Source: an uncultured Candidatus Bathyarchaeia archaeon
Lineage (GTDB): Archaea; Thermoproteota; Bathyarchaeia; Bathyarchaeales; Bathyarchaeaceae
Assembly: GCA_964399485.1 (NCBI GenBank)
Contig: CAYNQS010000001.1
Coordinates: 64,797-128,796, forward strand
Direction of reading: 5' to 3'
DNA length: 64,000 bases
This document shows, piece after piece, positions 2,611 to 40,108 of this stretch. The notes below the pieces were generated by a model, which did not search any database, was not told the origin of the DNA, and saw nothing but the letters and a program-made list of their open reading frames with translations. Positions within the stretch are counted from its first letter, which is position 1. The number at the start of each line of letters is the position of its first letter. Both the position numbers and the translations under genes were made by a program.

Positions 2611-2830
2611 CAGTTTTCACGCCCCAAATAGAATATTTTGTTTGCAGCTTAAAGCTTTCCTGAGCCTAAACAAAAACAATGGCACTGAAATGTTTTACAA
2701 ACAGATTTGTGGTTTCATTCGAATAGTATCGCACCTAAACCTTTTTACCCCAAACCAACTCATTTATGGAGTAAAATAAACCCGAAGGTAAATGATGTTA
2801 AAGAGACTAAATGGAGAATGACCAGAACCC

Positions 2831-3013
2831 ATGCAGACCTTGAGAGATATTCGGGAGAAGATTGCGAAGCTGGAAAGCGAGAAGGCTGAACTTCTGGCGG
2901 AAGTGGAGGAACTCAGAGAAAAGGCAGAAACAAAAGCCGCCTCTCTAGAAGAAGAAGTAGCCCAACTAAGAGAAGAAGCAGAATCCTTGAAGGAAATGCT
3001 CGGCTCCCTCTAG
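2831..3013 (+). CDS. 60-aa coiled-coil protein (paralog of 19485..19667)
   Basis: ATG ORF. Same length and clear similarity to the ORF at 19485 (shared LREKIAKLE.EK..LL.EV..LR..AE.KAA.LE.EVA.LREEAESLK.ML). Confidence 0.6.
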   Translation: MQTLRDIREKIAKLESEKAELLAEVEELREKAETKAASLEEEVAQLREEAESLKEMLGSL

Positions 3014-3107
3014 CGAAACCACCATCCCACCTCAACAGTTCCCCCCATGTGCAAAGGAAGCACAGCCAAAAGTTCCACAGACAAAACCCTAACTGCCGAA
3101 CATGCCC

Positions 3108-3162
3108 CACAATCATATTTGAAGCCTAACAACAGCGCATTGTTGAAATGTACAAAAAATTT
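3108..3162 (-). repeat. Double-hairpin intergenic repeat (M1), copy A
   Basis: The reverse complement reads ACATTTCAACAATGCGCTGTTGTTAGGCTTCAAATATGATTGTG and aligns with the other M1 copies. Confidence 0.7.
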
Positions 3163-3219
3163 TAATGCTTAAGAATTGAACAAGTATAGATTAGTCAACT
3201 AAAAGAGAGGGTATAAGAA

Positions 3220-3999
3220 ATGAAGAAAGATTTGTTTGCTGCTTTTTCATTGCTCATGCTTTGCAGTCTACTGTTGATTACAACTGTTGGAACCGTCATG
3301 GCGGGCAACCAAGACTACTCAATCATAGAGTATTGGACTCAGGTAGCACCCACTTTTGATGGAGAATGGACTTCGCCAGATGAATGGACCGACGGTCAAC
3401 ATGTACAAATATCAGACGCTGGTATGTTCACATATACAGCGGACATAATGCTAACAGGTTCAATGAACTCCCAGTTCCTTGTCGAATTTTTCAGTGACAC
3501 CACCGACGATCCTGAAGACTACTGGCAAATTTGCCTTGACCCATCAGAAGGCGGTGGCTCTGCTCCTGGGACCGGTTATGGCAGAATAGACATTATCGGA
3601 CACACCGAGATAAAATGTTATGAAGGAGACGGAACAGGCTGGACCGAAATTTCGGTAGAATCAGACATAGAATGGGCAGACTCAATCACTGATACTCCGC
3701 TCAATAGCACTGCCCACTGGATTCTAGAATTACAATTTAACAAGGAATCAGGCGCCATGACACTCGCTCAGCCGCCAAATGGATTGAGAATTGCATTTTA
3801 TGATGCAAGCAATCCCGATGCGGGAGTTCAGGCGTGGCCACCAGGCAGTGACGTAGACGTTCCAGATACGTGGGGAGTAATCCCAACTTATTCAATGGAC
3901 CCGATACCAGAGAGCATTGGCTTCGGAGTTGCTGCGTTGCTATCGTCTATTGCGGTTGCTGTTAGCTTCTACTTTTTGCGGAAGCGACCAAAAACCTAA
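3220..3999 (+). CDS. Secreted CBM9/DOMON-like protein with C-terminal PEx-hydrophobic-basic anchor (paralog of 16036..16842)
   Basis: Signal peptide, PTFDGEWTSPDEWTD motif, and a C-terminus IPES + hydrophobic helix + RKRPKT resembling PEF/PGF-CTERM sorting signals. Confidence 0.75.
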   Translation: MKKDLFAAFSLLMLCSLLLITTVGTVMAGNQDYSIIEYWTQVAPTFDGEWTSPDEWTDGQHVQISDAGMFTYTADIMLTGSMNSQFLVEFFSDTTDDPEDYWQICLDPSEGGGSAPGTGYGRIDIIGHTEIKCYEGDGTGWTEISVESDIEWADSITDTPLNSTAHWILELQFNKESGAMTLAQPPNGLRIAFYDASNPDAGVQAWPPGSDVDVPDTWGVIPTYSMDPIPESIGFGVAALLSSIAVAVSFYFLRKRPKT

Positions 4000-6288: not shown

Positions 6289-7146
6289 CTAAAATTCGAT
6301 AATGTCTCCAGTGTGAAGAGGTTGGCATCGGTCTCCGAATGCTTCAGCAAACTTTTTGCCAGCTCTTTTGCCTGTGCAGTGGCACGGTCCAACGAATTTT
6401 AGGTCAAGTTTCTCCAGTTCGTATGCTGTCGCCTGAATTCTCTCGTTCTCTACATTCCCGAGGTGGAAGCCTCCCAGAACCGCGTATACCCTGCTGTTTC
6501 CTGTTATTTTCTGGGCATACTTGATAGTGTTGATTATCCCCGCATGCGCACACCCAGCTACAACAACCAATCCTTTGTTTTCGACATCTATGACCAAAGA
6601 TTGGTCGTCAAGCATCACATCATCAACGAACTTTCTGTTGCGGACTGTCCAGAAGCCTCTAACACTCTCAAAAGCTGTAATTCTGGGGACTTCTCCAGTT
6701 GTGGTAATTCCGTCAGCTATCTTTACAGGATTAGTAGCCAGAATAGGTTTGCCACCAGCAGCCTCAACTTCAGAGGCGTGGAAAGGTGCACCGATAAACT
6801 TTAGATGCGGCTTCATCTTGAGTTTTGGACCGAAAACCGTTGGATGCCCAATAACTGGAACACGTTTTTTCATCCGTTTCAGGGCTTCCAGCAAGCCGCC
6901 TGTGTGGTCGTAGTGACCGTGACTAATCGCAATTACGTCAACATCTTCCAAATTCACGCCCATCGCATCCACATTGTGCAGAAGCGCTTCTGGCGATGCC
7001 CCCGTATCCATCAACACCGTCACTTCGTCGTCGCCAATTTTTGCTTTTGTGAAGAACGAGAGACCATGTTTGCTTTTGAGGTGAGGCTTAGCTGGGCTTT
7101 TAGAGTCTTCGATCAGAACTGTTATCTGGACGTTTTTGGCAGCCAT
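6289..7146 (-). CDS. Metallo-beta-lactamase fold protein (COG1237-like)
   Basis: HGHYDHTGG metal-binding motif; 285 aa. Confidence 0.8.
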   Translation of the reverse strand: MAAKNVQITVLIEDSKSPAKPHLKSKHGLSFFTKAKIGDDEVTVLMDTGASPEALLHNVDAMGVNLEDVDVIAISHGHYDHTGGLLEALKRMKKRVPVIGHPTVFGPKLKMKPHLKFIGAPFHASEVEAAGGKPILATNPVKIADGITTTGEVPRITAFESVRGFWTVRNRKFVDDVMLDDQSLVIDVENKGLVVVAGCAHAGIINTIKYAQKITGNSRVYAVLGGFHLGNVENERIQATAYELEKLDLKFVGPCHCTGKRAGKKFAEAFGDRCQPLHTGDIIEF

Positions 7147-7272
7147 TTTGTTTTCTACCTTGCTTTTTAATTTTTGAGGGCGTATGCAGGTAATATTGTT
7201 CTTCGCTTCATAACTAAAGAGAGTTATGTTTAGAAAATAAACTGGCTAACAAAAAACTTGTGTGCACCCGTC

Positions 7273-7680
7273 TTATGGGGTAATTATGAGTGACCTGAGC
7301 TGCTTCACTCCCTTCCTTGTTGCCAGCTCCTGAGCCAGCTTTCTTATGTCTTCGGCGTCGCCTTTAACCGCAACAGCCTCCAGACAGTCTCGGTCGCTTA
7401 GGTGAACGTGGAGGACTGAATTTATAACTTCTCGATGGTGATGTTGATATTCGACGAGATCGTCTTCCAGACCCTTGATTTCATGATCATAAACCATCAC
7501 CAAGACGCCAGCCTTTTTTCCCTTCTGCTTGTGAAGTAACCGCTGTTCTGCAATAAAAGACGTAACCGCATCCTGAATAGCCTTTGATCTGCTATCATAC
7601 CCCATCTCCTCAACGGTTTCATCCAGCTCCCTCAGCAACTCTGGGGGAAAAGTGACACCAACACGAACAATCTTACCCAT
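7273..7680 (-). CDS. nikR: Nickel-responsive regulator NikR (ribbon-helix-helix + metal-binding domain)
   Basis: N-terminal RHH (VRVGVTFPPELLRELDE) and C-terminal His/Cys-containing ACT-like domain (HHHRE...HVHL...C). Start set at MGKIV. Confidence 0.8.
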   Translation of the reverse strand: MGKIVRVGVTFPPELLRELDETVEEMGYDSRSKAIQDAVTSFIAEQRLLHKQKGKKAGVLVMVYDHEIKGLEDDLVEYQHHHREVINSVLHVHLSDRDCLEAVAVKGDAEDIRKLAQELATRKGVKQLRSLIITP

Positions 7681-30990: not shown

Positions 30991-32208
30991 TTACTGTTTT
31001 GTTGCCGAGGTCAGCCATGAAAAGAGGAAATAGCTGATCACCGCCAGTGCGCCCGGATACTTGATCATGGGAATAAGAGATCGTCCCTGAAAATCTAGGT
31101 CCCCAACCTTCTCAAGCACGCTGTCAACACCCAGTTTTCTGCACAAGTCAATCATCCCGTCTATTCTGCTGTCAGAAAGGCTGTTGAGCATTCTGCGCAT
31201 CCGAAGCATAGCAGCCAAGTCAAAACCAATCAAACTTTTCCATCGGGACTGGTAACGGGACAGAAAAGCCTCCGAAAAATCCTGCATTTTCACGGCTTCA
31301 TAGGCAGCCTCCCCTGCCACTCTAGCACATGTCAACCCAAAGATGACGCCTCCCCCGGTTGTGGGTTTCACTTGGGAAGCCGCGTCTCCAACCACCAGAA
31401 AACCGTCCGAATACGTTTTAGGGATTGGACCAGCCAACGGTATGGGATGAAAAGAACTGTATGTGGTTCTGCTTCTTTTCAGTTTCTCAGAGGCAATAGG
31501 GTGTTTCTCCATGAATCGCCGCAGATATTTTCCGGGGTCACCGGATTCGGTGGCTAAACCAACCTTCGCTGAGCCATCTTTTCTGGGGATTATCCAAGCA
31601 AAAAAGCCGGGAGCAACTTTACTTCCTAGATACACTTCAACCATGTCTTCCTCTGTCCCCTCCACGCAGTCAACTTCAGCTTGGGCTCCCTTCACCATCA
31701 TAGAACCCATCAGCCTCTGTAGACCGGTCTTCTTCAGAAGCTTTGATGAGCAGCCCTCAGTATCTATCACCACATTCGCCTCCACCCTCTCTTCTCCCTT
31801 TAAGACTACTCCCTTGACAGAACCTGAATCCAAAATTAGAGATTTCACCCTTGACTTGAAGCGGTACATGACTCCTGCTTTCATGGCAAGTTCAGCGAGG
31901 TGTTTGTCAAAGAGTTCCCTGTTAACTACATAGGTTACTGGAGCGCGGCACCGCAACACAAACTGTTTACCTGACGGAGAACAGAAAACGGCTCCTCTAA
32001 TCTCGTTTTCAATGGCAGCCCGTGGCATCCGCATTCCTAACCGTTCCAGACTGGAGACATTCAAGTGACCAGCACAGTGCTTAGGCACCCCTATCTCTTC
32101 ATGCTCTTCGCAAACCAGAACTTCGGCACCTAGTTTGGCGGCTGTATATGCCGCATATGAGCCACAGGGTCCTCCTCCGACTACAACGATGTCAGATTTT
32201 TCCTTCAC
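30991..32208 (-). CDS. Geranylgeranyl reductase family flavoprotein
   Basis: DIVVVGGGPCGSYAA FAD-binding fold and VVGDAASQVKPTTGGG motif. Confidence 0.85.
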   Translation of the reverse strand: MKEKSDIVVVGGGPCGSYAAYTAAKLGAEVLVCEEHEEIGVPKHCAGHLNVSSLERLGMRMPRAAIENEIRGAVFCSPSGKQFVLRCRAPVTYVVNRELFDKHLAELAMKAGVMYRFKSRVKSLILDSGSVKGVVLKGEERVEANVVIDTEGCSSKLLKKTGLQRLMGSMMVKGAQAEVDCVEGTEEDMVEVYLGSKVAPGFFAWIIPRKDGSAKVGLATESGDPGKYLRRFMEKHPIASEKLKRSRTTYSSFHPIPLAGPIPKTYSDGFLVVGDAASQVKPTTGGGVIFGLTCARVAGEAAYEAVKMQDFSEAFLSRYQSRWKSLIGFDLAAMLRMRRMLNSLSDSRIDGMIDLCRKLGVDSVLEKVGDLDFQGRSLIPMIKYPGALAVISYFLFSWLTSATKQ

Positions 32209-32319
32209 TTCTCCTCCTCTTCTGTTCAGCCAACGACTCTACTAATGCACTGAGAAAGAATTAAAAGATAGCATATATAAGAGGCAGTTGTATTATCCAA
32301 TTTTCCTTGAGGTGTTGCT

Positions 32320-32505
32320 GTGAGCGAGGATGTAAACATCGTTATGCCCAAGTGCATGTCATGTAACCGAACTATTCCACCGGGTGAAGACGCAACAAAG
32401 ACCAGTTGCCCAAACTGCGGAGAAATAGTTATCTGGCGCTGCTCTAAATGCCGTCAGTTCGGAAGAAACTACCGCTGCCCAAAATGCGGGTTTACTGGAC
32501 CGTAG
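32320..32505 (+). CDS. Small double zinc-ribbon protein (COG2888/DUF1610-like)
   Basis: Four C-x2-C pairs ending CPKCGFTGP. GTG start 5 nt after GAGGTG. Confidence 0.7.
   Translation: MSEDVNIVMPKCMSCNRTIPPGEDATKTSCPNCGEIVIWRCSKCRQFGRNYRCPKCGFTGP
32482..32504 (+). repeat. Direct repeat, left copy (3' end of the zinc-ribbon gene)
   Basis: AAATGCGGGTTTACTGGACCGTA, identical at 21/23 positions to 34630..34652. Confidence 0.8.
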
Positions 32506-32898
32506 GGGATATTTACCTGACCTTTTTATTTATCTTTAAATGTGCATGATTTTAGCACAAAAAAGGGTCTTGGTCGATATTAGAGATATTAACCACCTGG
32601 TTGTCTTTTTTGGTTTCAGAGCAATTTCATGAATACATATTATAATGTACTATACATAAACCGTACACGCAGAGAAACTCATTCAGCCATCAATAAGCTC
32701 AGGAGGCTCTCAGTCCTATTACTTCTGCTTAAACAGCTGAGGCATCTAAGTCTCTATGTTGCCCTTTCTCTTTCTTAATCAGACCCAATTTCACTCAGCT
32801 TATTCTTCAAGTTTCATTTATGAACGCGTTAATAACTGTCCTAAAAAATAAGGGAGGGAGGGTTGTGACCGTAGTTTTTGGTGGGATGTTTTGGAGCT

Positions 32899-34248
32899 CT
32901 AGACCGCGATCTCCACAGCCTCGTGATCCCTCTGCCAATGGCCTATATGGAAGTAGTTGTTTATGATGGTTCTGTCCCAAGCTCTAAGAACTACCAGGTA
33001 GCAGCACGGTTGGAGTTCTTCTCCTTCCGCCCAAGGGTTCCAAATCACTTTCCTCCAAGGCGGTTCACCGGTGTCAGCTACGTTTCCTTCGTAGGATCTG
33101 TCGACCTCCAAGCCCGTAATCTCGTCTTTAATTTTTTTAGTGATACCGCATCCGCCTTCTGCTACAAGGGTGAGCTTTCCGAAGTTGGGGTCCTCTGCTC
33201 TGAACCTTATAACGATCTTGCCTTCACCCTTTTTGATGCCGCTGCATTTTATCTCCTTCTCCGTTCCGTCATCCATTAGTATTTTGAGGTTTTGGAGTTG
33301 GACAAGCGGTGCTTCATTATCCACTCTTACTGCGACGATTTCACTCATGAACTCGGCTCCAAGAGTGTTCCTAACTGTCAGCCTAAGATAATATTTCCCT
33401 GTCCCACTGGGGGTCGGCCAGTCTGTCAGATAGTTCATGTTTACCATTTCCGCCACATTATACCAGCCCGGGTCTGGAGCGAGAGACGGTTTTCTGATAA
33501 TGTAACTGATTCCATTCCATTCTATAAGTGTGGTCGTGATCGGGGTCCATGAGGCTAGGTCCGAGGAATATTCAACCTTGTACTTGTCAGGTTTGGTTAT
33601 CCAGAGAATTCCCCGTATCTCTGCCCACCCACCGAAAGGGTGGTCGCCACGCCCTTCCGAGACATCGGGTGCAGCGGTCGTCCCTGGAGGCTGGCTAGGA
33701 CCGTTTGCATAACCTTCGGCGTCGATCTTACCAGTGGGGATGTTGCCCACATGTGTGATATGAGGCATGTCTGGGCAGAGGAGCCAGCATATCCTACGGC
33801 AATAGAAGTAGGCGAACCAGCCACAGAACTGCCTACAGTAAGGCATCATCTTCCATTCCGCGAGTATGGATCGGAACTTTTCGGCGTCCTGTCGCTTGTA
33901 AGCATCGAAGAGAGCCACAAAAGCCTCCTTGTTGGCGGTCAGTCTCACCGTTGCCTTCCCAAAATTGAGCATTTCCTTAACTGTCGGTTTAATCGGCTCT
34001 TTCTCTGGTGGACAAAGCGGTGTGCAGGCAAATCTCCATATCTTTACGCAGAACCAGCGGCAAATCCACCGACAGTATTTGAAGATGTCAAGTCTCGATA
34101 GCACCGCCTGAAATCTTTCCGCATCACGCTTCTCAACTGCCTCGGCAGCTTCCCTAAAAAGCTCTGGATTCTTAACAAGTTCTTCTAAAGCCTCCCGAAA
34201 CTCTGTCAACTTCTCAATCTCTACTTCATCTTCACTCAAGTCTTTCAC
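32899..34248 (-). CDS. Orphan 449-aa protein: two mirrored Cys-rich helical modules plus a beta-rich C-terminal region
   Basis: Long ORF. The likely start is the TTG at 34239, 5 nt after GGAGGTGA. Modules are YCRWICRWFCVKIWRFACTPLCPP and YCRQFCGWFAYFYCRRICWLLCPD. No family recognised. Confidence 0.7.
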   Translation of the reverse strand: MKDLSEDEVEIEKLTEFREALEELVKNPELFREAAEAVEKRDAERFQAVLSRLDIFKYCRWICRWFCVKIWRFACTPLCPPEKEPIKPTVKEMLNFGKATVRLTANKEAFVALFDAYKRQDAEKFRSILAEWKMMPYCRQFCGWFAYFYCRRICWLLCPDMPHITHVGNIPTGKIDAEGYANGPSQPPGTTAAPDVSEGRGDHPFGGWAEIRGILWITKPDKYKVEYSSDLASWTPITTTLIEWNGISYIIRKPSLAPDPGWYNVAEMVNMNYLTDWPTPSGTGKYYLRLTVRNTLGAEFMSEIVAVRVDNEAPLVQLQNLKILMDDGTEKEIKCSGIKKGEGKIVIRFRAEDPNFGKLTLVAEGGCGITKKIKDEITGLEVDRSYEGNVADTGEPPWRKVIWNPWAEGEELQPCCYLVVLRAWDRTIINNYFHIGHWQRDHEAVEIAV

Positions 34249-34629
34249 CTCCTCTTGATTTTATTTCATTATGAAAGAATACTCCCGTCAAAATCATGAT
34301 GTTTAGGTGTATCCCTTCACATTATAATTATTTGTTGAACTGAACTTAAAACTTTGGGGTCAATCAAAAATTATAACAAAAACTGTGGGGCTGTGCTGCT
34401 TTCAAATTTTATTAGTTCTTAATACAAACTGTGATAGGCAATGTAATTACCTTTCAATTTGGAAGGAACACAGAAAAGATACTGACAAAGAAAGGTTAAA
34501 ATTTAATCCTTAGAAAGCGAGGGTACAGAGCACAAAGTCAATAATATTTAAAGATAATTTGTATACCCATTCTAAAATAAGCAAAATTTTAAATTTGGTC
34601 TTCCGGGGGCTGTCTCCATGATGATTTGC

Positions 34630-34652
34630 AAATGCGGGTTCACTGGACCCTA
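34630..34652 (+). repeat. Direct repeat, right copy (orphan duplicate of the zinc-ribbon gene 3' end)
   Basis: AAATGCGGGTTCACTGGACCCTA. In frame it still reads KCGFTGP-stop. Confidence 0.8.
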
Positions 34653-34867
34653 ACAAGAGTCCAGTAGATCAGCTGCTTCTGTTTGTGGATTAGCATGAAT
34701 TTTTTAATGGGTAGGCATACTCAAAGCCAGTTTTTCTAGCGAAGATTACGGCTTATTCTTTTGGGCATCATTTCACGACATATTGCACTTACGTGCTTGC
34801 CGTTTGAAAGGAAATAAGGTAGATTGTGTATAGACTACTGTAAAGTAAAGTAGAGGGGGGTGAAACT

Positions 34868-34990
34868 GTGGGGATTCAGGAAGTTAATGAGAAGTACCGT
34901 TGCAATATTTGCGGTAACGAAGTTGTTGTAACCAAGGTCGGCGGCGGAACACTTGTATATTGCGGACAGAATATGGAGTTAATCAGCTAG
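34868..34990 (+). CDS. Desulforedoxin-like small protein (40 aa, below the ORF-track cutoff)
   Basis: GTG start after GAGGGGGGTGA. Translation is VGIQEVNEKYRCNICGNEVVVTKVGGGTLVYCGQNMELIS, resembling the Dx/Dfx N-terminal domain but with YC instead of CC. Confidence 0.5.
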   Translation: MGIQEVNEKYRCNICGNEVVVTKVGGGTLVYCGQNMELIS

Positions 34991-35121
34991 AAGTTCTCTT
35001 GTATCCGGTTTGCTCCGATTCTAAACTGCAGAATGTGCTACACTATAATTTCATGAGGTGTAAAAGCAAATAGTTATATAATACCCAAGAACGTTTCACC
35101 TTTTAAAAAGGCTAAGTTACA

Positions 35122-36093
35122 TTGAAAACTGCAAGACTGTTAGTTACTGTTTCAAGACCCGAGTTTATTCCCGCAAATTCAGCCTCCCTAATTATTGGAG
35201 TGGCGTGGGGCATCAATCTCCCAGTAATAGACCTTGTTTGGGAACTGTTGATTCCAGTGGCTCTAGTGTACGCTGTAATCAGTCTTGTTGCAGCCGTGGC
35301 AGCCCAAATCAACACTATGGCAGACTATGAACTGGACCTTAAAGACAGCAACAAAAAAGAACTTGTCAAAGCCATGAAAAGCGTGGGGCAGAGCAAAGTA
35401 AAGGGGCTTATTATTGTCGAGATACTACTAAGCTTAATTTTTATCGTATTATTGTGGCAAATCATAGGGAAACCTGCTCTGCTGCCTATTTTGGCAACCG
35501 CAGTTTTCTTGGCATACGCCTATTCTGCAAAGCCTCTTAGACTAAAATCCAGATCATGGCTTGCAGTGCTCACGCTGATTATTGTCCTCAGCATCTTGCC
35601 CATAGGCTTCGTGTATTACACCTTCACTTCTGAACTGAACTTTCTGTTCCTCATTTTCCTCTCTGGACAGGCTATGACAGTTTATGGTGTAATCGTACCA
35701 GCTGAGATTCGAGACTACTTCACTGACAAGAAAATGGGCACTCAGACTATGACCGTGCAGCTGGGACTTGTCAAAGCTTCACTCTTAAGTATAGTGTTGC
35801 TGAGTGTGGGAGGATTCCTCGCGGGAACAGGCTTCTTACTCAAATTTGTTTACGGGACTAATCAGATACTGATTGTCTTCTTGCTTGTAATGGCGATTGT
35901 TTACGGTTTTATTCTGAAAAAATACAGCAGGCTCTATTCTCTTTCCAAGAAACACTTGACATCAAAAGACTCTGATTCTGTTGCTCAGGAGATTGAGAAG
36001 TTGACGGCACAAAATCCACGGTGGATCACTCTAGTCACCCAATCAATCGTCTTAATGTCTATCGTACTTTTGGTAAGCACGTTCCTGTCTTGA
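35122..36093 (+). CDS. UbiA family prenyltransferase
   Basis: Polytopic membrane protein with an NxxxDxxxD motif (NTMADYELD). Confidence 0.8.
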   Translation: MKTARLLVTVSRPEFIPANSASLIIGVAWGINLPVIDLVWELLIPVALVYAVISLVAAVAAQINTMADYELDLKDSNKKELVKAMKSVGQSKVKGLIIVEILLSLIFIVLLWQIIGKPALLPILATAVFLAYAYSAKPLRLKSRSWLAVLTLIIVLSILPIGFVYYTFTSELNFLFLIFLSGQAMTVYGVIVPAEIRDYFTDKKMGTQTMTVQLGLVKASLLSIVLLSVGGFLAGTGFLLKFVYGTNQILIVFLLVMAIVYGFILKKYSRLYSLSKKHLTSKDSDSVAQEIEKLTAQNPRWITLVTQSIVLMSIVLLVSTFLS

Positions 36094-36148
36094 GCAATCA
36101 CCCAGAATGTTACTGATGCAGCGAAGGCAAGACCACAAAACCTGTTTT

Positions 36149-36781
36149 TTATCTTGAATTGGTTATCTTGATACATCGTTCGATTGCATCAAGGCATGTT
36201 TCGTCTAGAGAATACTTGATGGTATTCCCCTCAGCTCGACCTGTTACCAGACTTTCCTCTTTTAGTTGTTTCATGTGCCACGTTAGAGCCTGAGAGGAGA
36301 TGTTTAGGCGCTGAGCCAACTTTCCATGAGACGCCGACTCGTCATCATGCAGTATCGCCAAAATTTTTGCCGTTGTCTCATGTCTGAGAACAGAAATTAT
36401 TTTCTTCTCTATGCTGGAGAATTTTTTGGATTCAAAGTATCGTTTGTTTCGTCCATCGCGGCGATTAGAAATTAAACCTCCCTTCATGAGCACCGCAAGG
36501 TGATACTGTACAACTCCGATTGGAAGCGTGAGGTAGTTGCAGATGCCTCTGAAGTTGATTCCCGGGTTGTTTATTATGAAGTTGTAGATTTGCAGGCGAG
36601 TTGTTTGATTCAAAAGATGCGAGACATGATTACTGCAAGTCATCTCCTGAAGGAATGATTGAGGGAAAAATGATGAGGGATAATATGGAGCAAGATTACC
36701 CTTCAGATTTACTACTGCAACCAAAGAAAAGATGATGATTAACAGTATTAGGAACATTGAAAGGAGCTTTGCATGTTTCAA
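36149..36781 (-). CDS. Membrane-anchored winged-helix (ArsR-like) transcriptional regulator, two wHTH units
   Basis: N-terminal TM helix, then two HTH-like segments (GICNYLTLPIGVVQYHLAVLMKGGLI and HGKLAQRLNISSQALTWHMKQLKEESLV). Confidence 0.7.
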   Translation of the reverse strand: MKHAKLLSMFLILLIIIFSLVAVVNLKGNLAPYYPSSFFPQSFLQEMTCSNHVSHLLNQTTRLQIYNFIINNPGINFRGICNYLTLPIGVVQYHLAVLMKGGLISNRRDGRNKRYFESKKFSSIEKKIISVLRHETTAKILAILHDDESASHGKLAQRLNISSQALTWHMKQLKEESLVTGRAEGNTIKYSLDETCLDAIERCIKITNSR

Positions 36782-36972: not shown

Positions 36973-37503
36973 ATGAAAACAAATGAAATAACGTTAGCGA
37001 TAGTTTTTGCAAGTTTGTATGCAGTTTTAGTTATTGCTTTAGGAACAGTTGGTCAAGGTCCTGTGCAATTGCGTGTTGCAGATTGTCTGATTCCCTTAGC
37101 CGCTTTGTTTGGTTGGCCAGTTATTGCCGGAGTAACAGCTGGATGCTTTATTGGTAACTCGGTTGTGTGGTTGGGTACAGAGGATGTTGTCTTTGGAACA
37201 ATTGCTAACTTTATCGCAGCAACCATAGTTTTTCTTCTTAGAAAACGGCAACTGTTGGCTTGCACTGCTGGTTCTTTTCCAATCGGAATAATTGTGGGCA
37301 GCTATCTTTGGCTATTCTTCGAGTTCCAAATAGACGTCTTTGGGTTACAAATTCCAGCGTGGGCTAGTATGATGGTTAGCATTACAATTAGCACTTTGAT
37401 TGTGATGTCGGGAATAGGCTACGCTATACTCAAAACATTGAGCAGTTCCAGCCTTATCCAGACGTTCAAATCTTGGGGAATAAAAGTTTACAATAAAGAA
37501 TAA
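36973..37503 (+). CDS. queT: QueT-family (queuosine/archaeosine precursor) transporter S-component
   Basis: 176-aa polytopic protein with a GPVQLRVADCLIPL segment like the QueT family (COG4708). Confidence 0.7.
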   Translation: MKTNEITLAIVFASLYAVLVIALGTVGQGPVQLRVADCLIPLAALFGWPVIAGVTAGCFIGNSVVWLGTEDVVFGTIANFIAATIVFLLRKRQLLACTAGSFPIGIIVGSYLWLFFEFQIDVFGLQIPAWASMMVSITISTLIVMSGIGYAILKTLSSSSLIQTFKSWGIKVYNKE

Positions 37504-37654: not shown

Positions 37655-38248
37655 ATGCGTAACAAAATAATGTCAAAAATTTTAGTAACATTCATTATAG
37701 CATCGATGGCATCAGCAGCCACGATGTCATCAAATGTCTTCACTGTATTCGCACAACAAGCCACTCTTGAGGATGTCATTGCAGAGATAGAAGTGCTTAA
37801 CGATAGACTGGATGACATAGAAGAAAATCTAACCGCCCTGAATTCAGCCATAGCCTCATTGAGTGCTGCAGTTGATAAGCTGGAGGGGATCATGTATACT
37901 CTCAGCGCAACCACCGCAACTGCCTCGGAAGTAGCTCGTTTTGATTCAGTTTTGGACAATCTAGCCAACATGGTCAATAACGCATGGTCAATCACAACTT
38001 CTCTCAACGCCACTGTCGCGACCAAATTAGAGTTAGCCGCTGTAAGTTCAACTGTAGACGAACTTGAAGTCACCTTGGATTCTCTCAGCGCACGCACACA
38101 AGCAACAGAAAGCTACCTGAAAGAAAACATCGAACTCTTGAAAATACTGGTAGTGGTAGCACTCGTTTTGGCTCTGGTGGCAGCAGTTGCTGCAATAGCG
38201 TCAGTCTACATTATGCTGAAAAAAACCAAGACCCCGAAAGCTGGGTGA
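37655..38248 (+). CDS. Secreted coiled-coil protein with C-terminal TM anchor
   Basis: Signal peptide, long Ala/Leu/Ser/Thr heptad region, C-terminal hydrophobic helix plus KKTKTPKAG. Confidence 0.6.
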   Translation: MRNKIMSKILVTFIIASMASAATMSSNVFTVFAQQATLEDVIAEIEVLNDRLDDIEENLTALNSAIASLSAAVDKLEGIMYTLSATTATASEVARFDSVLDNLANMVNNAWSITTSLNATVATKLELAAVSSTVDELEVTLDSLSARTQATESYLKENIELLKILVVVALVLALVAAVAAIASVYIMLKKTKTPKAG

Positions 38249-38425
38249 ATCTTCCTCCTTTTTATTTTTTATAGAGTGTAACGTTGAAGTGACCTTAATT
38301 TGGCATTATGAATTTTCGATAGGACTAAAATAAAAAATGTTAGTATTTATTTGACTGCGCAAACTGTAAATAAGGACAATTTTATTATTATCTTTTGATT
38401 AATTTGCTTTTCATGGGGGTTTGTC

Positions 38426-40108
38426 ATGAATATTTCAACGTTTTGTCGTAGAATGAGAGAAGAAGTTGCTGAACACTCAGTTGGAAGAGAAGATACTGCC
38501 GCTTTTCTAATATGGTATTTAGAAAACTATTTTAGACTTGAAACTGTTGATGCAATAAGTTCTGTTTGTGACAGTAGAAACGATAGAGGTATTGATGCAA
38601 TTTTTGTAGATGATGATGATCAAACCATATATATTTTTCAATCAAAGTTTAGCCCATCAAATAGGCAACGTCAAGGGGATAGAGATCTGAGAGATTTTAT
38701 GGGGACCCTACAATGGTTCAATAATGAAGCAGCGGTAAGGACATTGAAAAATGGAACAACAAGCCAAGAATTGAAATCTATTATCGAGAATCAAAAGATC
38801 ATAGAGAAAATAGATTATGAAAAGAGATTGGTTTTTGTAACTAATAAAAGATTTAATGACCATGCAAACGAATATCTTGCTACCACAGAGAATTTTGAAG
38901 CATATGATTTACAAAATCTTTTTGACAAATATACTTACTTTGCAGAGGAAGAAATTGATTTACCTGAGGTCGAATTAATCATTTCAAATTTGACCAACAT
39001 TGCATATAATTTGACTGGCGGGTTAAGGGCAAGAGTGTATGCAATTAGAGCCAAAGAACTTCTCAAGTTACATGGGATTCAAGATCGAACTCTCTTCTAC
39101 AAAAATGTGCGGTATAGCGTAGGAAAAACAAGGGTAAACAAAGATATTAAGAAAACTATTGATCAAAGAAACGAACATCAGAATTTCTTCTTGTATCATA
39201 ATGGCATCTCAATTATATGTAGAGAATTAACTGAGGATCACCAGAATCACAGAATAAGACTAAGGGGATATGCTATAGTTAATGGATGCCAATCCATGCT
39301 AACTTTCTATGAAAATCGGAATGAATTAAGTAACAACTTGTATGTCTTGGTCAAGATAATAACCATCAATCCAACATCCCCCTTGATCAAAAAAATTACG
39401 CATAATGCCAATAATCAAAACTCTATAAGCATTCGGGACCTCAGATCCAACGACTCAGTTCAAACTTGTTTGCAAAGAGAATTTCAAGAAATATTTGGTG
39501 ACAGGGTTTTTTACAATAGAAAACGGGGAGAGCTCTCTCCAAACGCTGATATTGTAATCGACAAAGATTTGGCTGCACAACTTATTACAGCAGTATATTT
39601 GAAGGAACCACACATGACTCATTTGAAGCAAAAACTGTTTGGAGAATATTACTCCAAAATCTTCTCAAGAAACATGACAGCGGAAAAAATATTCTTAGCC
39701 AAAAAAATCTATGATATTGTGGAAGAAAATTCTGATTTATTAGATAACGAACGCATTAGAAATTATGGTCTATCGCTCTTTTTCTTTTCACATGTCCTTG
39801 CAGAGATCCTGAACATGGATGAAACTGGTGCTGAAATACTAAATAATCCAAGACAATATATTGTAGATCAAATTGATCCTCTAACAAACAGTATAAGGCA
39901 AATCTGGAGATTAATAACGCCAGATATAAATGTCGATATAGAGGAATACACCGAACAAAATGATAATTATTTTGATTACAAAAACGTTTTCAAAAATGCT
40001 AACTTTGTAAGAACGATGGGACGCCAAATTACTGCAGATTATCAAAGAGTAATACGAAGAAATAATGATGACTCCTTCTCAAGAATATTTGAAACATTTT
40101 CTACATAG
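38426..40108 (+). CDS. AIPR (abortive infection phage resistance) family protein
   Basis: N-terminal nuclease-like GIDAIFVDDDDQTIYIFQSKF and central FLYHNGISIIC...VNGCQS motifs typical of AIPR. The gene and flanks are visibly AT-rich. Confidence 0.75.
   Translation: MNISTFCRRMREEVAEHSVGREDTAAFLIWYLENYFRLETVDAISSVCDSRNDRGIDAIFVDDDDQTIYIFQSKFSPSNRQRQGDRDLRDFMGTLQWFNNEAAVRTLKNGTTSQELKSIIENQKIIEKIDYEKRLVFVTNKRFNDHANEYLATTENFEAYDLQNLFDKYTYFAEEEIDLPEVELIISNLTNIAYNLTGGLRARVYAIRAKELLKLHGIQDRTLFYKNVRYSVGKTRVNKDIKKTIDQRNEHQNFFLYHNGISIICRELTEDHQNHRIRLRGYAIVNGCQSMLTFYENRNELSNNLYVLVKIITINPTSPLIKKITHNANNQNSISIRDLRSNDSVQTCLQREFQEIFGDRVFYNRKRGELSPNADIVIDKDLAAQLITAVYLKEPHMTHLKQKLFGEYYSKIFSRNMTAEKIFLAKKIYDIVEENSDLLDNERIRNYGLSLFFFSHVLAEILNMDETGAEILNNPRQYIVDQIDPLTNSIRQIWRLITPDINVDIEEYTEQNDNYFDYKNVFKNANFVRTMGRQITADYQRVIRRNNDDSFSRIFETFST

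Follow-up and report, generated by a model that had tools for sequence, protein, structure and literature searches.

How did a small zinc-ribbon gene come to be followed, about 2.1 kb downstream, by a second copy of its own last codons? The question is raised by a stretch of 64,000 nucleotides from the genome of an uncultured Candidatus Bathyarchaeia archaeon (contig CAYNQS010000001.1; hereafter the window), in which a preliminary description had noticed the duplicated gene end and had read it as the footprint of site-specific integration. Our comparisons with related loci and contigs, given below by their L numbers, support this reading by sites that lack the insert, by integrase genes lying at the same repeat sequence, and by the two arms of an integrating element at the ends of the insert. 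We consider it very probable that window positions 32505-34652 are the integrase-less remnant of a Bathyarchaeia integrative element that targeted the last 23 nt of an HVO_2753-type zinc-ribbon gene (hereafter ZnR).

The duplication itself was confirmed. The first copy of the repeat, here called core 1 (AAATGCGGGTTTACTGGACCGTA), comprises the last seven codons of the 61-aa ZnR gene together with the TA of its stop codon, and the second copy, core 2 (AAATGCGGGTTCACTGGACCCTA), is identical to it at 21 of the 23 positions. Both differences (TTT/TTC and CCG/CCC) fall on third codon positions, as had been stated, and the third base of the stop codon differs as well, being TAG in the gene and TAA in the second copy. 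When up to three mismatches were allowed, these two were the only core matches in the window, and the repeat is not a product of chance, since none of 100 dinucleotide-preserving shuffles of the window yielded two matches. The TGC in front of core 2 had also been likened to the C-x-K-C of the intact gene. The residues encoded at this place are I-C-K-C in the window, S-D-K-C in the sister strain L099 and A-D-K-C in L013; the TGC is thus not conserved, and the resemblance is coincidental and no relic. Between the two cores there is a single convincing gene, on the minus strand (32899-34248) and encoding a protein of 449 aa, which is flanked by 394 and 381 nt of DNA with a GC content of 0.29-0.41. 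These flanks are indeed non-coding, but the AT-richness ascribed to them is at the ordinary level for intergenic DNA in the window. No integrase remnant was detected in 32505-32898, including the filler at 32557-32811, and Rfam, promoter and terminator scans of 32200-35200 returned nothing meaningful.

Related loci were found via the neighbouring geranylgeranyl-reductase-like (GGR) gene, which yielded twelve in reference genomes; the closest are all from Bathyarchaeia assemblies, with L006 being 90% identical. The gene order TruD-Pth2-GGR followed by a divergent ZnR is kept in L006-L013, and the synteny of GGR-Pth2-TruD with ZnR is also seen in L101-L105. In L006, L008 and at the core named c1 in L013, the 3' end of ZnR is contiguous with a homologue of window 34653-34768, the junction lying exactly at the core, and none of these insert-free loci carries the 449-aa gene. 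An empty site, with ZnR directly before the desulforedoxin-like open reading frame (ORF), had been predicted, and it is seen in L008, where this ORF follows ZnR after about 210 nt. L011 provides an independent case, with two core copies 3.2 kb apart that enclose other cargo genes, encoding a DUF2341 protein of 787 aa and a protein of 184 aa, and the sequence after its second core is the one found after the single core in L009. As further details of this locus, the second core copy reaches 32 nt but without the stop codon and two glycine codons, and the DNA after its first core may hide an integrase stub reading ...DYIHTHENMFF-stop (L011 7508-7708, 4443-4474). An inverted ZnR-like fragment near core 2 of L011 was weak (E 0.47) and was judged not significant.

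The same 23-nt core adjoins intact integrase genes elsewhere. In L010 a 393-aa tyrosine recombinase (2771-3952; PF00589, 1.9e-20) is encoded convergently with ZnR, its stop codon 47 nt from the core, and intact tyrosine integrase genes were likewise located beside the core in L018, L020, L021, L030, L101, L102, L103/L104 and L105/L106. Convergent orientation with ZnR, at a distance of 21-47 nt beyond the core, applies to the integrase genes of at least ten contigs; the contig P0124 shows the same integrase-GGR-Pth2-TruD order, as judged from gene order alone with no DNA compared. A metagenome scan returned more than 560 relatives. Among the integrase contigs that were fetched and reach beyond the gene, all those with an integrase at least about 57% identical to that of L010 adjoin the ZnR core (L018, L020, L021, L030), and in the contigs from the protein database (L101, L102, L103/L104, L105/L106) the integrase abuts the ZnR core by GGR-Pth2-TruD. 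The distant relatives (45-56% identical) mostly lie 25-90 nt from a convergent tRNA 3' end, their targets being the tRNA genes for Pro, Cys, Phe, Ile, Ala, Val, Arg, Gln and His. Since the distant relatives reside at tRNA genes, these integrases appear to constitute a classical tRNA-type family with one clade using the ZnR gene end, and this clade has apparently switched from tRNA genes to a protein gene. The layout is not that of SSV-type systems, in which the attachment (att) site lies inside the integrase gene and the gene is split on integration, as the integrase ORF is intact in the relatives.

The integrases (L010 2771-2900 and relatives) start with a CPxCG...CxxC zinc ribbon that gives a sub-threshold match to DUF7838, and no SAM-like domain is recognisable by Pfam in their N-terminus; the likeness of this CPxCG motif to the CPxCG motifs of the target protein is most likely a coincidence. 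In L103 (794-11191; GCA_964510635.1), several further genes come after the integrase-bearing ZnR element; they encode an N6_N4 methyltransferase, a HATPase_c_3 protein of 703 aa, two proteins of unknown type and a MazE-like antitoxin, a set that looks like a defence island carried as cargo.

Homology to the integrase-bearing members of this family is present at both ends of the insert. The left (L) arm, 32505 to about 32556, aligns with the T-rich spacer by which the core is separated from the integrase stop codon in L010, L101, L102, L007 and L013 (86% over 42 nt with L013 by BLAST), and the homology does not extend past the approximate point at which an integrase gene would start. For the opposite end, complete relatives of 3-8.6 kb with direct repeats are informative (L075, L026 at tRNA-Pro, L069 at tRNA-Phe, and L077), which all possess a conserved arm just inside the integrase-distal repeat, whatever the target. 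This right (R) arm has the consensus AAAAAGAGGGG-TTTGCGGGRGATGTCTCCA and is separated from the core by 6-14 nt, and it is also found in the window (CCGGGGGCTGTCTCCATGATG), in L099 and in L013; nine sites could be aligned, among which five different cores are represented (L013, L025, L026, L034, L069, L075, L077, L099 and the window). In L025, the R arm, a ZnR-type core, the L spacer and the integrase gene are contiguous, an arrangement that corresponds to an attP-type junction, and attP-type junctions of the same R-core-L-integrase order with other cores occur in L034 and in the IMG/VR contig L116. The pattern of R arm plus core gave no match in IMG/VR. The R-box motif alone (18 nt) gave ten exact matches there, of which one (L116) is the true attP-type junction by an integrase gene. 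Because the other nine (L107-L115, viral contigs) have no integrase nearby and several apparently lie in coding sequence (...AGDFS...), the R-box motif alone is not diagnostic. Among the complete relatives, the 6.45-kb element of L075 (699-7169) is bounded by 17-bp direct repeats and sits in the last codons of a 157-aa gene; it encodes a protein of 768 aa that weakly matches the N6 DNA methylase and Eco57I-type methylase domains.

The DNA that follows core 2 also bears traces of an integrase. In L006, L008, L012 and L013, a homologue of window 34653-34768 comes after the single core. On the minus strand this stretch encodes NEARQLVETGFEHVCTYENVMLFRKRK-stop in L013, which is the C-terminus of an integrase (tblastn E=3e-9), and TRKTGFEYIYSLKNFVLTRKQK-stop in L006; in the window it reads ...ARKTGFEYAYPLKN, then a frameshift and MLIHKQKQ, with the stop codon lost. 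Judged from a DNA alignment of the 3' end of the L105 integrase gene with L013, L006, L008 and L012, the stretch is composed of a 22-nt L spacer and a stub, the decayed 3' end of an integrase gene from an older element. That it might be native downstream host DNA was ruled out by the translation as an integrase C-terminus. The insert-free sites thus still carry the older relic and are empty only of the 2.1-kb insert, and the window holds two relics in tandem; given that an older integrase stub follows core 2, the site was used at least twice. The layout of L013 consists of ZnR, core 1, the stub, three genes, an R arm, core 2, an L spacer and an integrase gene running off the contig end, and it represents an integrase-less unit with an integrase-bearing element docked on its att site. 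A candidate hairpin formed by core 2 and the next bases is kept in four of five homologues, mostly by G-U changes; its z-score is only -1.7, with one compensatory pair, and the stretch concerned is the old L spacer. In L006, the closest reference genome, the old stub is immediately followed by a complete gene for a TATA-binding protein (6904-7464, minus strand; PF00352, 7.6e-63), which takes the position held in the window by the desulforedoxin and UbiA genes.

The sister strain represented by contigs L099 and L100 encodes a 449-aa protein 94% identical to that of the window and shares window 32069-34509 and 34579-34653 at about 93%, including ZnR, core 1, L arm, cargo, R arm and core 2. As the insert is common to both, the insertion is older than the split between the window and L099/L100. 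L099 remains homologous to the window precisely up to the last base of core 2, and about 20 nt further on it joins the terminator and the 3' part of a helix-turn-helix (HTH) gene (window 36145-36370). A segment of about 1.46 kb with the stub, the UbiA gene and the desulforedoxin ORF is missing from it (L099 570-820 vs window 34653-36370). Of the HTH gene, L099 retains only the part for the 77 C-terminal residues, after which comes an AsnC-type ORF. All 43 bases of the R box (20/20) and core 2 (23/23) are identical in the two strains, compared with 86-90% in the adjacent non-coding DNA and 2/6 in the 6-nt spacer, and the L arm (45/52) is not specially conserved; this hints, from a small sample of 43 bases, that the right att site may be under constraint. 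In the window, R box and core 2 together form an 11-codon micro-ORF, MMICKCGFTGP*. The form MMxxKCGFTGP-stop is in frame in the window (34603-34652), L099 (821-870) and L013 (221-270), where residues 3-4 vary, and GGGGG sits 8 nt upstream of its ATG. We surmise that the micro-ORF is probably a by-product of the fixed arm-to-core spacing, its translation being a possible alternative.

A tyrosine-integrase element that duplicates the 3' end of its target gene and then decays is a textbook mechanism, and from the comparisons above we infer a history of this kind. The integrase would have the classical lambda/pNOB8-like layout in which its gene stays intact after integration. In the circular form, attP would consist of the R arm, 6-14 nt, the core and a 21-47-nt T-rich L spacer, with the integrase gene ending just past the L spacer and running convergent with the target gene. 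Recombination in the core between attP and the last 23 nt of ZnR would create the order ZnR-core1-L-int...cargo...R-core2-(earlier downstream DNA), whereby the previous gene end would be displaced to become core 2. ZnR would be regenerated because the core of the element carries the same codons, encoding KCGFTGP-stop. A later loss of the integrase and the backbone, presumably by deletion, would have left the L arm, filler, the 1.65-kb cargo module, filler, the R arm and core 2. The element would moreover have landed in front of an older relic of the same kind, and such tandem accretion is consistent with the layouts seen in the window, with its two relics, and in L013, where a relic adjoins an integrase element. 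By analogy, the relic could be regarded as an archaeal version of the cis-mobilizable elements (CIMEs) of bacteria, as attL and attR are kept, genes for recombination or transfer are missing and the 449-aa gene is the sole gene. We consider 'decayed or mobilised in trans', as the preliminary description had put it, to be the right pair of options.

Several observations weigh against the proposed descent from an integrase-bearing element. The insert had been described as devoid of an integrase, and tblastn with the proteins of the L010 element finds no integrase homologue anywhere in the 64 kb. Searches of 10 kb in L010, L101, L102, L103 and L105 for a second core copy or an R arm, by fuzzy matching (up to six mismatches), blastn-short, Smith-Waterman and 13-mer scans, were negative, and an integrase-bearing ZnR element complete with both ends was not seen, which is the main gap. 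The evidence that connects the R arm with a ZnR-type core comes from the window, L099, L013 and L025. While the homology of the arms supports descent by decay, as for a CIME, the interior (32557-34602) shares nothing with the known element backbones with which it was compared (L010, L101, L103, L105). The 449-aa module also occurs at ordinary-looking chromosomal sites, and it may have entered the relic later rather than as cargo.

Other origins of the repeat were weighed against the remnant of an integrative element. The gene content between ZnR and a conserved membrane-protein gene (36973-37503) differs in almost every relative (L006, L009, L011, L012 and L099), as it would in a variable islet exchanged by homologous recombination in the conserved flanking genes, in which case the repeat would be a by-product, for example of a partial local duplication of the gene end. 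We regard this as very unlikely, since a local duplication leaves unexplained why an R arm lies by the copy and an L spacer by the gene, why at least ten contigs have integrase genes at exactly this core, and why, in three independent cases, the stop codon is exactly where the repeat ends. It is still harder to believe that the insert is a transposon or insertion sequence and the repeat its target-site duplication. A 24-nt imperfect inverted repeat (32530-32553 / 34534-34557, 79% complementary) does lie near the ends of the insert, yet its right arm falls in a 69-nt stretch missing from the sister strain, no transposase ORF is present, 23 bp would be long for a target-site duplication, the two copies differ, and the ends of the insert match the arms of the integrase elements. 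The inverted repeat was rejected as a pair of transposon ends, as it is not conserved in L099. An integron gene cassette was rejected as well: no attC-like imperfect palindrome bounds the unit, there is no integron integrase, and the repeats are copies of a gene end.

Within the reading as an integrase-derived relic, the insert might be a live non-autonomous mini-element, either a cassette or a functional CIME, which is moved through core 1 and core 2 by an integrase encoded elsewhere or incoming. This refinement strikes us as somewhat improbable, although the complete identity of R box and core 2 with L099, set against their less conserved neighbours and spacer, points in its direction, as does the end of the L099 homology exactly at core 2, which suggests recombination activity. 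The integrase-less unit of L013, abutted by an integrase-bearing element, moreover has the accretion layout by which CIMEs are mobilised (PMC5704250). On the other hand, the 43 conserved bases are a small sample and the L arm shows no comparable conservation; the location of the insert is unchanged between strains that are about 7% diverged, with no recent movement visible; no other L-cargo-R copy was found, the 449-aa modules elsewhere being without arms; and the window has no integrase. A bolder and, in our view, unlikely extension is that the 3' end of the HVO_2753-type gene in Bathyarchaeia is a working gene-capture hotspot at which integrase-less units with R arm and core are excised, shuffled and stacked in trans by the integrases of elements that are resident or newly incoming. 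If this were true, the Cys449 unit of the window and the three-gene unit of L013 would exemplify, for archaea, a process comparable to CIME accretion and in some respects integron-like, and R box and core, conceivably also the micro-ORF, would be kept by selection.

The 449-aa protein had been called an orphan. It is none, as at least 112 homologues are detected at E<=1e-3, in archaea and in Acidobacteria-type bacteria, and the gene occurs in three other genomic contexts. No significant Pfam domain is found, apart from three sub-threshold matches, and a PDB sequence search with the profile of the family gave marginal matches only. The AlphaFold2 (AF2) model, built from a 44-sequence alignment with a predicted local distance difference test (pLDDT) score of 92.7, has a helical N-terminal half with two similar Cys-rich segments, each containing four invariant cysteines (C59/63/67/75 and C142/150/154/158), and an all-beta C-terminal part for which Foldseek matches the tandem Ig/FN3-like domains of RbmA, SiiE and NCAM. 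A search for further copies, as had been proposed, retrieved the cargo module, consisting of the gene and its flanks (87 nt on the 3' side, 80-215 nt on the 5' side), at 86-88% DNA identity by PEMT/ICMT-like genes in L001/L002 and in L003, and as a frameshifted copy in L004/L005. No member of the 449-aa family was found on viral contigs. The gene for the PEMT/ICMT-family methyltransferase occurs in two arrangements outside the ZnR site, having the 449-aa gene upstream in L001/L002 (L001 201-2288, L002 3468-5555) and downstream in L003 (6001-8457), and this adjacency may reflect a functional link.

The features of the locus are compiled in Table 1. The 61-aa target protein scores above the family cut-offs for PF07754 (69.1 bits, cut-off 33.2) and NF011481 (84.2 bits, cut-off 61) and contains four CxxC-type motifs, which places it in the HVO_2753 / PRK14890 family; its score for the haloarchaeal equivalog NF041909 (55) is under the cut-off of 80. 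Exact-sequence look-ups returned no record for the zinc-ribbon protein or the 449-aa protein of the window. Further downstream, a 560-aa ORF (38426-40108, plus strand) contains an AIPR abortive-infection domain (3.1e-35) and a sub-threshold match to the Mrr_cat nuclease, and the stretch around it (about 38200-40100) is AT-rich, with a GC content of 0.31-0.37 vs about 0.45-0.5 nearby; it is probably a separately acquired defence gene.

Table 1. Coordinates of the zinc-ribbon gene, the putative element remnant and the adjoining features (window positions).
Feature	Position	Strand	Basis
Zinc-ribbon target gene (ZnR), 61 aa, HVO_2753 / PRK14890 double zinc ribbon	32320..32505	+	PF07754, NF011481
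Core copy 1, putative attL core	32482..32504	+	Same core adjoins integrase genes in relatives
Left (L) arm, T-rich spacer	32505..32556	+	Alignment with L010, L101, L102, L007, L013-c2
AT-rich filler	32557..32811	.	Among fetched loci common only to sister-strain contigs L099, L100
Cargo module: 449-aa gene (32899-34248) and flanks	32812..34463	-	Recurs in L001/L002, L003
AT-rich filler	34464..34602	.	69-nt indel relative to sister strain
Right (R) arm box, CCGGGGGCTGTCTCCATGATG	34603..34623	+	Nine-site alignment, five different cores
Variable 6-nt spacer, R box to core	34624..34629	+	Length same in window, L099, L013, L075
Core copy 2, putative attR core: presumed displaced gene end	34630..34652	+	23/23 identical to L099
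Older relic: 22-nt L spacer and decayed integrase 3' end	34653..34768	-	DNA alignment with L105 integrase 3' end
Desulforedoxin-like ORF, 40 aa	34868..34990	+	PF06397 1.5e-15; first gene past the two relics

The reading as a remnant would explain why gene content downstream of ZnR differs among close relatives, and it flags the Cys-rich 449-aa protein with its predicted Ig/FN3-like domains as the product of an itinerant gene. In addition, core, L spacer and R arm could serve as markers for delimiting elements and relics in the genomes of Bathyarchaeia, which are uncultured and whose mobile DNA is poorly annotated. The finding opens no long-standing question. The searched papers on Bathyarchaeia viruses and proviruses do not mention ZnR as a target, and in the searchable literature we did not find the HVO_2753/PRK14890 gene as an integration target, which makes it a new one, nor an integrase clade with a switch from tRNA genes to a protein gene, nor a reconstruction of an attP of about 100 nt whose R arm is conserved across different targets.

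Integration in the 3'-distal parts of archaeal protein genes and re-use of a single site are documented (PMC6563490). The classical (type II, pNOB8-like, lambda-paradigm) archaeal tyrosine integrases target the 3' ends of tRNA genes (PMC8371274). The ZnR family resembles the latter in layout, in that the integrase gene is intact and located at the end of the element by the att site and the core duplicates the 3' end of the target. It differs from them in that the clade with at least 57% identity uses a protein gene instead of a tRNA gene, and in the N-terminal zinc ribbon of its integrases, which have no SAM-like domain detectable by Pfam. A parallel is offered by NitEve-E2 of Nitrososphaera evergladensis, whose target is a Zn-finger gene of 51 aa (Krupovic et al. 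2019, PMC6563490): both cases involve archaea of the TACK group, a XerC/D-type integrase and the 3' end of a small zinc-finger gene whose frame is restored by element DNA, and in both the boundaries are verified by an empty site in a relative. The att site of NitEve-E2, however, is 13 bp long (ATAACGCACACAA) and different from the ZnR core, and its integrase is co-directional with the target, whereas that of the ZnR family is convergent. Its target gene is confined to Nitrososphaera and has no arCOG, in contrast to the widespread HVO_2753/PRK14890 family. The thaumarchaeal Zn-finger target (AIF83914) was thus rejected as the same system, since att and integrase orientation differ, and is to be seen as a parallel only.

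The closest counterpart of the overall arrangement may be found in bacteria, where the concept of CIMEs and accretion was developed with ICESt1/ICESt3 and the CIMEs at fda of Streptococcus thermophilus (PMC5704250). The present relic belongs to an archaeon (Bathyarchaeia), conjugation genes are absent, and its parent elements resemble small cryptic integrated elements 3-9 kb in length; mobilisation could be proposed only by analogy. Like the CIMEs at fda, however, the insert described here appears to be an attL/attR-bounded unit that has lost its integrase at the 3' end of a regenerated protein gene, with a second relic in tandem and, in L013, an integrase-bearing element docked on the att site of an integrase-less unit.

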